The translations under genes were made by a program, and so were the position numbers. Source: Escherichia phage SF. From it: 64,000 nucleotides of DNA. Positions 26,067 to 30,186 of the stretch are shown here, piece after piece. The notes beneath the pieces are model-generated. The model saw only the letters and a program-made list of their open reading frames with translations. It did no database searches and was not told the origin of the DNA. Location of the stretch: sequence record MH359124. The stretch is one strand, 5' to 3'. Position 1 is the stretch's first letter; every line of letters starts with the position of its first letter.

Positions 26067-26846
26067 TTATACTCTTGGACCATATATTGCTCCAACGTTT
26101 TGCCATGTTGGAGCTGATCCTGCTACAGCAGCACCAGGATTTGTCGGAGGTGTTGAATAACCAGCACCTGGATTAGCATATTGTCCCGGCTGACCAACTT
26201 CACCACCTCCACCTGCATAATACCCTGTACCAGTATTACCGCCAGCACCCGGAGACGTCAAACTAGCATTACCGCCAGGCCATCGAGCACCATTATTTCC
26301 GCCTAAGCCGAATGGACGACCGCCACCGCCACCACAAACATATTTTCCCGCCCAGTTGTTGGCTTGTGAATAACCGCCGCCGCCGCCACCGCCACCGGCA
26401 ATAGCTCCGCCATTATTAATTCGCAGACGTCCACCTATATCATTCTGGATACATACACCGCCATCAGATGCCCCAATTGCACCAGCGGCCCAACCATTCC
26501 CGCCGCGACCATACATCGTTACGCCGTGTATATTCAATTGAACATATTCATTCGGTGTATCTCCGTACATGAAGAATAAAGGAACATCTCTAGAATATGA
26601 TACTAAATCTCCAGTGATATTAAACACTATAGGTGCACTACCTGCCTCAAAACATCTATCTCGGAACCATTGACCATTGAAGTTATGGTCTGCTCCAAGT
26701 GTGTGAATTACTTCAACAGATCGACCTATCATATTACTCATCCAAAACGGAATTCCCATTCTCAATCTCTGTGCGGCACCGCCCATCCAAGGATCTCCGG
26801 TCTGTACCCTTGCAGACCATCCTACCCACGGTCCTTCAACTGCCAT
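26067..26846 (-). CDS. 38: long tail fiber adhesin gp38 (T2-type, glycine-rich motifs)
   Basis: Start moved from track TTG (26858) to ATG 26846 with GGAGG SD; 259 aa; conserved N-terminal domain plus C-terminal poly-Gly runs (GGGGGGGG, GGGGG) typical of T2/T6-type adhesins. Confidence 0.85.
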
Positions 26847-26858
26847 ATAAACCTCCAA

Positions 26859-26872
26859 GGGGCCTAAGCCCC
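26859..26872 (-). promoter_or_regulatory. intercistronic hairpin GGGGC-UUAG-GCCCC between genes 37 and 38
   Basis: Perfect palindrome 2 nt upstream of the gp38 SD; no T-tract, so probably an mRNA structure rather than a terminator. Confidence 0.35.
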
Positions 26873-26877
26873 TCTTA

Positions 26878-29800
26878 TTATTTTAACAATGATTTAACTA
26901 ATTTTTTAAGCTCTTCAATCTCTGACTTAAGTTCTGCAATTTCTGCAGTATGCTCATTGATTGCAGCTGTATTTAAACCAATTACACCGTTATAGTTCAA
27001 ACGAAGTAAAGCTTCACCATCAGGGTCGCCTTCAACTAATTCTGGTAAAATAGCTTGAACTTCTTGAGCTATCAAACCGGCGTTAGGTTCCCATTTCTGG
27101 TTACCTTCTTCGTCAGTTCCACGTTTCTGCATATAAGTGTAACCGTTAATTTTAGAAAGCTTCTCGGAAGCATTTTCAAATTTAACAAGGTCTTTTTTAA
27201 CACGAATATCAGAACGAACATAAACGTCTCGAACATATGTAGAATAGGCGTCGCTTTGTTGGACTAAATGGCCAAAAGAAATAATAGCTTTTCCTGTTTC
27301 AGTCCACAAAGCACCATTGGTATCCCAAAGACCTTCATGAATATGGTAAGAGTTAGACCAAGATGCAATATGAATCCCGTTAGCAACCATATTAACTCGA
27401 CCGTCACCGCCGTGTGATAATCCTGTGTCATTATCACCGATAGCAATACTAGGAGAGCCTAATCCGTTAACAGTACCAACACCAATGGCAGGAGTCTGGA
27501 CTAAAGTCGGGGCGTAAAATAAACCGCTAGAGTGGAATTCGAAAATACCTACAGGACCGTCGCCACGCTCGGCATTACCTACTCGAATTATCGCTTGTCC
27601 CCATGCTTGTGGAGTACGACGCATGCCTAATTCAACAGAAGTAGTATAACCCTGACCACTAATTAAAGATCGGCCTTTAATAATGGGATAATAACTGTCT
27701 TCCCACACACTACCAAACTCAAGGAAATAAGGTGCTTCTAAGCCCCATTGGTCATCCCATGAACCAGATTTATGTGCAACCCATTGACTAGCATTTATAT
27801 AAAGGCGGTCTCTATTAAAATTAAATGTTCCTTGTCCTTGAGGAGAAAGCGATATTTCACCGGTATTTGTTATGTATACACCGCCTTGTGTAATGTAACT
27901 GTAAAAACCTAGACCATTGTCGGCACCGCCTTTACCAATATACCAATTATTCTCCCCGGCCGTATCAGAACGAATAAATGATGAATCACTAGCTAAAGGA
28001 GGATTAAGAACTATCCCAGCAGCATCTTTATTAATCCAAAGAGTGCCGGTCATCGTATCGCCTTCTTTAGCAACACGAGTAGCTATTGCATCGCGAATAT
28101 TTGTAATGTCTCCTGCTGAAGTAAACGTTTTCCAAATATCCGAGAAAATATTGCCATTACGAGCAATAGCAGCTTCGCCCCCGCCGACCAGAACGTTATC
28201 AGGGAAGTTAACAGTACCGTCTTGATTAAAACGAGATGTATGTCCTTGTGATCCATCTTCTTTGATATGGTGTAAAACAAATGTACCCGAATTAATTTCA
28301 GTACCTAAAGACCAAACAGCTTTGCTATTTAAAAACTTCTGTTTAACAATAGGATAATATTTACTTACTGCGTCATCATCAATTTCTTGGAAAACAGGAG
28401 CTGCTTGAACATATTGAATATCATAACCGCCCGCGCCTGCGCCGTGACCAGTAAATTTAATATAACCGTTTGCTGCAAACGTATTGTAACTTGATTGTAA
28501 ATCTGGAATAGTAACTTTACCAGTATCTAAAGCCATACTAAACGGGCGAAGTGGACCGATATCACCATGTTTACCTTCACCGAATGCAGTAGGAATAATA
28601 TGAAGACTGCCTTCTGAACGTCTAAAAATAGCTCCATAATCTGCGTTCCAAATGCGAAGCGCATTCACAGCCCCAGATGAAATTTCGCCTGTTGTGTGAA
28701 CTCCTCTATTTCCAGCAGTAACACCGGATGATTCAAATGAACCATTGACGTTCATTTCTACTTCACCAGTAGTAAGTCTTTGAATATAACTCATCCAACT
28801 AGTTGCGTCAGAAATTTCCATAACGTTTTTACGATCACCTACACTAGGATTAGTAAACGTATTACCCCATACAGAAATTGTCATATTATCAACTGAACTA
28901 CTACCAGTTGTGTTACCTCTAAACATCAACGTAGAAGCATTATTACGACCATCAATATTAACAGAACCACCAATAACGTCAATATTACCTGGAGTAACTA
29001 ACAAACCGCCATGAGTATTAATGTTTGTGGTACCCTTACCGCGGAAATAATGATGATAATTACCACCTTGATAATAACCTAAAAGAGTTTGACCGTCACC
29101 GTATGCGTTATTATCGTGATATGTCACGACAGTAGCGAGAGCATAGTTTTCAGTAGGAGGAGTAGTTAAATCATTGCCATTTACAGAATAACCCATAACC
29201 ATTTTTCTAAGGCTTACGGTTGATTCAGGACTATAAAGGAAAGTTCTCGTACCATTGTTTACTACATAGAAATAACCATCTTGATACCATTTTAATCCGG
29301 TATCATTATCACCCAAAGCAATTGAAGCAGTTCCTAATTCAGAATATCCTTTAGAGTTACCTGGGGTGCCTACAGAAATAGAATGACCAGCTTTCAATCC
29401 GCCTGACCAAGTAAATGACCAAAGATATGCGTCTAAGCCATCTCCGGCATACCAAGTTATCCCGTCATTATCTTTAACTTCATGGAATATACCGGCGCCA
29501 ACAGCATTTCGCATAACACGGAGATGGTTAATAGCTGTTTCGCTTTCTGTCAATGGGGCATTATCGGCCATTGAATAGATGTCATAATCGCCTGCAACTT
29601 TACCGTTGGTAATAACTTTATTGGTATAAATTACCGGAGTTGATACAGATTTCCATCCAAAAACTTCAGGAGAAGAAAACAAACCATTACCTGAAAATGC
29701 ATAAGTGCTTTCGCTTGCAGTAGAATAATCCTGTACGCGAATATTAACTACTTGGTTAGTTGCTCCTGCATTATTAGGAGAAAAAATAATACCACGCTCA

Positions 29801-30186
29801 CGGTCATCGCCATCAAAGAAACGAAGATGAGAAGTTGAGGCGCTCTTAGAAATAAGTTCACCACCGTGGGTCATTATCTGACCTGCAGCAATAATATCAC
29901 GAGTTACGCGAGCAACACCGTTGAGATTAAAATCACCAATTTGAGTAAATACACCAGTAAGAGTGTAATCGCCTGTCTGGTTGTAGTTACCGTTATGAAT
30001 AACATTCCCGTCAATGCTACCGCCTTTAGCAAAACCCAGATCAATAATATTTCCTTGGTCATCTTTAGTAAAAAGTACACGGTCTTTTAAGTTTATAGCC
30101 AATTCACCTTCGGCTAATACTGAAGCAGCAGGACGTGCTCCTGCAGTTTTGCTTCTTTTAAATTGTATTTGTTTTAAAGTAGCCAT
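26878..30186 (-). CDS. 37: long tail fiber distal subunit gp37 with C-terminal intramolecular-chaperone (S74-like) domain
   Basis: 1102 aa; N-terminus [30 protein letters not shown]; C-terminus ...SDIRVKKDL...NGYTY...coiled coil, resembling self-cleaving chaperone domains. Confidence 0.9.

Follow-up and report, generated by a model that had tools for sequence, protein, structure and literature searches.

The distal tail-fibre module of Escherichia phage SF: a PP01-like gp38 adhesin, a gp37 with a C-terminal chaperone-like domain and a conserved hairpin between their genes

Among phages of the T-even type, T2 recognises OmpF/FadL and T6 recognises Tsx. In both, according to PMC3157838, which cites Drexler et al. 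1986, gp37, the distal subunit of the long tail fibre, is proteolytically trimmed and then capped by gp38. The structure papers on phage S16, whose target is Salmonella OmpC, established the role of the gp37 tip in docking and showed three tryptophans of gp38 to be the prongs that dock into gp37; the last 113 residues of S16 gp37 are a chaperone domain, autocleaved at DLNVS^SDRRIKK (PMC7917993). In phage PP01, the receptor of gp38 is the OmpC of E. coli O157; binding needs a GVIN insertion in OmpC loop 7, which OmpC of K-12 lacks, and loop E of the adhesin is the main specificity loop (PMC12892980); its crystal structure, 9V85, displays a polyglycine-II sandwich. T4 differs from all of these, as its gp38 is an unrelated chaperone and its gp37 bears a receptor-binding tip of its own. 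How such adhesins are built, that the chaperone domain cleaves itself and that cassettes are swapped at this locus is established T-even biology, described since the 1980s. Here we describe genes 37 and 38 of Escherichia phage SF, at positions 26067-30186 of a stretch of 64,000 nucleotides (nt) from record MH359124, which we call the window (genome accession of the phage, NC_055749.1; PMC9389114).

The interval is exactly gp38 plus gp37, and we read it, with a probability of about 0.88, as the receptor-binding module at the distal end of the long tail fibre in a T-even phage (Mosigvirus), of T2/S16/PP01 design, in which autocleavage of gp37, docking of gp38 and OmpC as receptor are predicted by homology. 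A sequence-only reading of the window had proposed a T2-type receptor-binding module, and its two components, a gp38 adhesin and a gp37 with a C-terminal Peptidase_S74 (S74) domain, were both found on the minus strand:

30186..26878, minus strand: gene 37, distal subunit of the long tail fibre, 1102 amino acids (aa) plus stop (open reading frame (ORF) list, PHROG)
26846..26067, minus strand: gene 38, tail-fibre tip adhesin, 259 aa plus stop
26852..26856, minus strand: Shine-Dalgarno (SD) sequence GGAGG of gene 38, 5 nt before the ATG, read from the sequence

The evidence is strongest for gp38, which matches Pfam GP38 (PF05268; 5.9e-72, 242.5 bits, cut-off 25), Pfam Gp38_N (PF21721; 4.8e-20, 71.7 bits, cut-off 25) and PHROG 2056, 'tail fiber protein; host specificity' (4e-108). 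Among PDB structures it matches S16 gp38 (6F45_D, 3e-49) and the PP01 gp38 receptor-binding domain (9V85, a fusion to green fluorescent protein; 7e-143), with residues 37-259 identical to the latter at 222/223 positions (99.6%). On these matches we assign gp38 to the tail-fibre adhesins of S16/PP01/T2 type and not to the T4-type chaperones. The opposite assignment, a T4-type assembly chaperone that stays outside the virion while gp37 itself binds the receptor, has in its favour just the gene name and the location downstream of gene 37, both the same in T4, and we give it next to no probability: BLASTP against the T4 gp38 chaperone returned nothing (best E=1.4 over 9 residues), whereas adhesin families and two solved adhesin structures are matched strongly, and gene 38 directly follows a gp37 that ends in an S74 domain, without a T4-like His-rich needle tip, and precedes the holin gene t. 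The protein divides into two domains:

26727..26846, minus strand: gp38 residues 1-40, gp37-attachment domain with Trp7, Trp20 and Trp35 (Pfam Gp38_N)
26070..26726, minus strand: gp38 residues 41-259, receptor-binding domain, a beta-helix plus polyglycine-II sandwich (near-identity to 9V85)

The sequence-only reading had expected an adhesin of about 260 aa with a conserved N-terminal gp37-attachment domain and poly-Gly runs separating variable segments, and in each of these respects the protein agrees with it; an alignment to the T4-type chaperone, which would have refuted that reading, was not obtained. W7, W20 and W35 are invariant in seven aligned adhesins (SF, PP01, T2, T6, S16, NHEP29 and G4507), as are the glycine blocks, which include poly-Gly runs at G151-158 (8 Gly), G172-176 and G212-215; glycine makes up 33% of residues 110-259. 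T2 and T6 share with SF an adhesin of ~260 aa in which glycine-rich motifs lie between hypervariable segments, yet SF gp38 is only 50% (T2) and 64% (T6) identical to theirs, and SF gp37 36% (T2) and 29% (T6). Identity to S16 gp38 is 48%, and the loops differ. As a guide to SF, the alignment with T2, T6, S16, NHEP29 and G4507 is superseded by the near-identity to PP01, whose gp38 is likewise 259 aa long and stands in the same gene order.

The start of gene 38 is the ATG at 26846, 5 nt after GGAGG. A 263-aa ORF from TTG 26858 in the mechanical ORF list was rejected as gene 38, as it is ATG 26846 that carries GGAGG 5 nt upstream. The exact 259-aa protein had no match in a collection of 15 billion proteins in which the adjacent gp37 is present, and gp38 in the deposited record probably begins at another start codon. 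SF gp37 is identical to AWY07754.1/YP_010096464.1 (Escherichia phage SF, species Mosigvirus sf). An NCBIfam scan of gp37 and gp38 matched no family.

The near-identity to PP01 extends to every part of gp38 that has been implicated in receptor recognition. Taking the limits of receptor loops A-E from PMC12892980 (PP01), the corresponding segments of SF are:

26475..26492, minus strand: receptor loop A, W119-I124, WAAGAI, identical to PP01
26337..26366, minus strand: receptor loop B, Q161-V170, identical to PP01
26280..26297, minus strand: receptor loop C, N184-W189, NNGARW, identical to PP01
26220..26237, minus strand: receptor loop D, N204-Y209, NTGTGY (Gly208, Tyr209), identical to PP01
26154..26174, minus strand: receptor loop E, N225-S231, NPGAGYS (Ala228, Tyr230), identical to PP01

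Residues Y159, K168, Y169, G208, Y209, A228 and Y230, whose importance in PP01 was established by cross-linking or mutagenesis (PMC12892980), are all identical in SF. Counted by codon, gene 38 differs from that of PP01 by 25 synonymous and 7 non-synonymous changes; six of the seven lie within the attachment domain, at residues 4-19, while from codon 20 onward there are 22 synonymous changes and a single non-synonymous one, P257S, in the conserved C-terminal tail, which is the sole change in the receptor-binding domain. The clustering in residues 4-19 points either to a joint left by recombination or to co-adaptation with a gp37 tip unlike that of PP01. One substitution of this cluster (26787-26837, minus strand, gp38 residues 4-20) creates a fourth tryptophan, W10.

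Across Tequatrovirus, Mosigvirus and Krischvirus the gp38 phylogeny predicts the receptor, with close relatives sharing receptors (PMC12032242). Because loops A-E and the critical residues are identical to those of PP01, and because close gp38 relatives share receptors, O157-type OmpC is the predicted receptor of SF. The polyglycine-II sandwich would present the five loops to the cell surface, and loop E would insert into the cleft between loops 5 and 7 of OmpC. A different receptor (e.g. OmpF, Tsx, OmpA or K-12 OmpC), reached through P257S, the N-terminal changes or the gp37 context, is very unlikely in our judgement. Single loop substitutions in gp38 do shift receptor use (the Ox2 and T6/PST work, as given in PMC3157838), gp37 differs by 19% between SF and PP01, and a literature search gave no host data for phage SF; against this, the five loops and each PP01 residue tested as critical are identical, residue 257 lies outside the loops in a conserved tail where T6 too has Pro, and close gp38 relatives have common receptors across genera.

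The second component, gp37, matches PHROG 1699, 'long tail fiber protein distal subunit', over its full length (E=0), and its features are as follows:

28537..28842, minus strand: gp37 residues 449-550, homologous to the gp34 C-terminal trimerisation domain (Pfam Gp34_trimer, 2.4e-08)
27214..27465, minus strand: gp37 residues 908-991, distal tip ending in the strand DVYVR, predicted to remain in the fibre and to bear the gp38 docking surface (6F45_A alignment)
27211..27216, minus strand: predicted autocleavage site, Arg991 / Ser992 (S16 alignment, codons checked)
26881..27213, minus strand: putative intramolecular chaperone (Peptidase_S74), gp37 residues 992-1102, 111 aa, with Ser992/Lys997 and a C-terminal heptad-like helix

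Residues 992-1051 match Pfam Peptidase_S74 (PF13884, 'chaperone of endosialidase'; 1e-12, 48.6 bits, cut-off 22), and 6F45_A, a fragment of S16 gp37, aligns with residues 908-1102 (1e-46); its intramolecular chaperone bears out the earlier description of the SF C-terminus as chaperone-like. In this alignment SF DVYVR^SDIRVKK lies over S16 DLNVS^SDRRIKK. An RSDxRxK motif is common to the gp37 of SF, PP01, G4507, NHEP29, T2 and T6, where S16 has SSDRRIK, so that the residue before the scissile serine is Arg in SF and Ser in S16; downstream of SDIRVK the SF C-terminus includes INGYTY. The Ser/Lys register is aligned throughout (SF SDIRVK, S16 SDRRIK, T2 SDIRLK, T6 SDSRLK, 8jov SDERLK, MyRF (A)DLRAK), with S-x4-K aligned also in two weak PDB matches, the MyRF autoprocessing domain (7dc3, 0.012) and the tail fibre 8jov (0.027). 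The K1F endosialidase, the T5 L-shaped tail fibre and MyRF resemble SF in that a trimeric beta-helical fibre is followed by a C-terminal S74 module, which opens with Ser and Lys at a distance of five residues. A helical tail such as ends their domains is predicted for SF by a low-confidence model; the similarity of SF to the solved members of the family is nevertheless distant, as the E value for MyRF illustrates. About 110 C-terminal residues of gp37 also have counterparts in more than 15 other PHROG tail-fibre families, at the extreme C-terminus in each, as would be expected of a portable module. By sequence comparison, the whole S74 domain is absent from T4 gp37, whose N-terminal 50 residues are 90% identical to those of SF at the same locus.

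The S16 complex (6F45) has a trimeric gp37 tip, an autocleaved C-terminal chaperone with S-D-x-R-x-K, a monomeric gp38 with three Trp prongs and the polyglycine-II sandwich, an architecture predicted for SF as well; S16 gp37, at 749 aa, is the shorter of the two, that of SF having 1102 aa. By analogy with S16, SF gp37 most likely cleaves itself between Arg991 and Ser992 after trimerisation, and we infer that gp38 docks on the resulting tip. The subunit would fold as a trimeric beta-helical fibre, aided by its own C-terminal 111-residue chaperone domain; once the trimer had formed, this domain would cut itself off by means of a Ser992/Lys997 dyad, exposing a flat tip made of DVYVR strands on which one gp38 monomer would dock by means of the helical domain at its N-terminus, the prongs being Trp7, Trp20 and Trp35. 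Further up the fibre, gp37 residues 418-561 (28504-28935, minus strand) match T4 gp34 (4UXE/5NXF, about 1e-11), and the Gp34_trimer homology is a module common to the proximal gp34 and the gp37 half-fibres.

The module sits in a minus-strand block, 25377-35877, that has the canonical T-even long-tail-fibre order 34-35-36-37-38-t and Pfam matches to Phage_T4_gp36, Peptidase_S74, GP38, Gp38_N and Phage_holin_T. Its other members are:

35877..32044, minus strand: gp34, 1277 aa
32035..30911, minus strand: gp35
30851..30195, minus strand: gp36
26036..25377, minus strand: holin t

Residues 58-131 of gp35, the hinge connector (gene 30911-32035, minus strand), match Pfam ILEI (FAM3/interleukin-like EMT inducer; E 6.5e-07, 30.2 bits vs a cut-off of 27).

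Comparison of this block with other phages reveals the gp36-gp37-gp38 cassette to be a recombination patchwork in an NHEP29-like Mosigvirus backbone. In the phage collection searched, the best match to the module is PEC04 (91%), whereas in the flanks NHEP29 and other Mosigvirus-like phages reach 96-97% identity. Against NHEP29, the closest backbone relative, gp34, gp35 and t are 99%, 99.5% and 100% identical, but identity falls to 69% in gp36, gp37 retains 82% over residues 1-701, past which the two proteins are essentially unrelated, and gp38 aligns only over residues 1-166 (71%). The patchwork, mapped by a 150-nt sliding comparison, begins NHEP29-like at the start of gp36, is PEC04/UFV-AREG1-like at gp37 residues 279-800 (91-100%) and closest to JS10 at residues 791-961 (92% at protein level), passes through a chaperone domain and 37/38 junction closest to L002/L004 and a PP01/PEC04-like gp38 receptor-binding domain, and returns to NHEP29 identity at the gp38/t spacer, so that the junctions of the cassette lie inside gp36 and at the gp38/t spacer (25377-30851). 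PEC04, UFV-AREG1 and PP01 are Tequatrovirus phages; the module of PP01 has a Tequatrovirus backbone, that of SF a Mosigvirus one. Over residues 1001-1102 the SF gp37 chaperone domain is 96-98% identical to that of PP01. Such recombinational shuffling is classical for the distal fibre locus (Tetart 1998; Trojet 2011). The motif SIA(L/I)GDNDTGL occurs twice in SF gp37, at residues about 286-305 in the shaft and 911-930 in the distal tip, and is possibly among the conserved motifs at which recombination takes place.

Between the two genes lies a hairpin that the sequence-only reading had noticed as GGGGC-UUAG-GCCCC directly upstream of the gp38 SD; it is there, at 26874..26857, and its stem extends further than was described:

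26857..26874, minus strand: intercistronic RNA hairpin GAGGGGC-UUAG-GCCCCUU, conserved in T-even loci

The junction in the mRNA reads UAA UAA GAGGGGC UUAG GCCCCUU GGAGG UUUAU AUG. The core GGGGC/UUAG/GCCCC extends to 7 base pairs (bp), five of them G-C, with a dG of about -12.7 kcal/mol; the hairpin immediately follows the tandem stops UAA UAA of gp37 and reaches as far as GGAGG, which is unpaired in the minimum-free-energy fold. All-GC 5-bp hairpins are rare in the 64-kb window (38% GC), where five were observed against 0.34 expected from dinucleotide shuffles, and the gp37-gp38 hairpin is therefore beyond chance. An Rfam scan of 25000-36200 (E<=1) found nothing at the hairpin, the one chance miRNA match being far below its gathering score.

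Conservation establishes the hairpin as a real T-even element. It is present at the same position in 23/23 T-even loci examined, for which an IMG/VR scan with gp38 supplied 13 loci that taught nothing further about the proteins, and it occurs in 12 distinct versions whose stems differ yet remain paired. Because loop length varies (3-5 nt), a MAFFT alignment left the stems of the junctions out of register, and the hairpins were tabulated directly, e.g.:

Stem GGGGC/GCCCC: the SF window and PP01
Stem GGGCC/GGCCC: L008, L009 and L014
Stem GAGGGC/GCCCUC: T2
Stem GAGCC/GGCUC: S16
Stem GGGGG/CCCCC: NHEP29

The loop is the very stable C(UUCG)G in most relatives, PP01 among them, and UUAG in the SF window, L002 and L007. 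Where the locus is of the adhesin type, 10-16 nt always separate the end of the stem from the AUG, and the stem adjoins the SD or stops 1-5 nt upstream of it, whereas in T4 the homologous GC hairpin of the 37/38 junction sits between the SD and AUG of gene 38.

The hairpin most likely works in the RNA, whether by protecting a 3' end, by terminating part of the transcription or by insulating translation, and in our ranking a role in RNA stability or translational insulation is most likely, ahead of a leaky attenuator and then of a terminator for the + strand. In T4, the stable C(UUCG)G hairpins of intercistronic regions have been proposed to protect the 3' ends of processed mRNA. The first possibility, an element that protects the 3' end of gene 37 mRNA or keeps the gp38 SD unpaired, we favour tentatively, at somewhat short of even odds. 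It fits the stable C(UUCG)G tetraloop of most relatives, the placement of adhesin-type stems at or just upstream of the SD and the unpaired GGAGG, although the SF loop is UUAG rather than UUCG. The hairpin is kept even in T4, where it enhances initiation at gene 38 by shortening a 22-nt SD-AUG spacer to 5 nt (PMC3014915). This bridging mechanism of the T4 gene 38/gene 25 type was considered for SF and rejected: the hairpin lies 5' of GGAGG, and the mechanism is inapplicable because the spacer is already at the optimal 5 nt, which also counts somewhat against a translational role.

How far transcription passes the hairpin bears on the second possibility, and the late promoters of the block are relevant here:

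30878..30885, minus strand: T4-type late promoter motif TATAAATA, upstream of gene 36
35912-35919, minus strand: T4-type late promoter motif TATAAATA, upstream of gene 34

No TATAAATA motif occurs between genes 37 and 38, and gene 38 therefore has to be expressed by read-through; genes 36-37-38 are probably transcribed from the one late promoter upstream of gene 36. The gp38/t spacer contains a one-mismatch variant of the late-promoter motif, AATAAATA. In the 3' part of gene 36 (30295-30311, minus strand) there is a terminator-like hairpin on the coding strand, GGGGCGCTAACCGCCCC then AAACTTTTTC, which is one of the five all-GC 5-bp hairpins of the window.

Given this dependence on read-through, the intercistronic hairpin might be a leaky intrinsic terminator or attenuator of the late 36-37 transcript that lowers gp38 and holin mRNA relative to gp37 mRNA. 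We regard this as possible but less probable than a role in stability or translation. In its favour, a GC-rich 7-bp stem adjoins the gp37 stops, the equivalent structure in phage G4507 is labelled 'putative transcriptional terminator', and a fibre stoichiometry of 3 gp37 : 1 gp38 (S16 structure papers) suits it; yet the sense-strand tail, UUGGAGGU, has no U-tract, the terminator scan makes no call on the minus strand, and gp38 and possibly t still need to be expressed downstream. A canonical intrinsic terminator on the sense strand was likewise considered and is not supported, there being no U-tract despite the GC-rich stem. More speculatively, the hairpin could be a dosage device, whether leaky attenuator or RNA-processing barrier, that keeps gp38 (one per fibre) and the holin below gp37 (three per fibre); we hold this to be doubtful. 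Were it true, T4 would later have co-opted the hairpin to bridge the SD and AUG of its gene 38.

Read on the other strand, the same sequence could chiefly terminate early or antisense transcription entering the late fibre genes from the asiA side. Early genes 52, motA and asiA on the + strand converge on t/38/37, and the consensus scan finds the site terminator-like on that strand only (AGGGGCCTAAGCCCCT then CTTATTATTT). The stem is, however, one pair shorter on the + strand (A-C instead of G-U), and a stronger + strand terminator-like hairpin of 12 pairs stands directly after asiA, within the 3' end of the convergent holin t (25404-25430), so that little transcription should arrive; we consider a mainly + strand role unlikely. 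A stability or translation element thus stays our first choice for the hairpin.

Several observations qualify the overall reading of the module as set out above. The single-sequence AlphaFold model of gp37 residues 975-1102 is of low confidence (pLDDT 59), and although it contains a C-terminal helix at about 1055-1101, with pLDDT of about 67-85 in the last three 10-residue blocks, a Foldseek search of PDB with it returned noise only (best E=3.3), which leaves membership of the chaperone-domain family to be argued from sequence alone. With respect to the receptor, gp37 is only 81% identical to that of PP01 overall, gp38 carries P257S and six N-terminal substitutions relative to PP01, and the JS10-like segment of gp37 could modify host range, e.g. 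via lipopolysaccharide contacts. The hairpin, for its part, has no U-tract on the sense strand, where its tail is GGAGGUUUAU, and the terminator scan calls the site on the + strand only. None of the evidence that we found contradicts a model of T2/S16/PP01 type.

With two adhesin structures solved, a crystal structure available for an essentially identical receptor-binding domain, and the genome of the phage already deposited with annotation, the module of phage SF has little bearing on basic science. What it yields is a specific receptor prediction for this phage, namely O157-type OmpC, with dependence on the GVIN insertion in loop 7. The comparison also documents the transfer of a PP01-type, O157-specific adhesin to a Mosigvirus backbone, which is relevant to choosing or engineering phages against E. 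coli O157.

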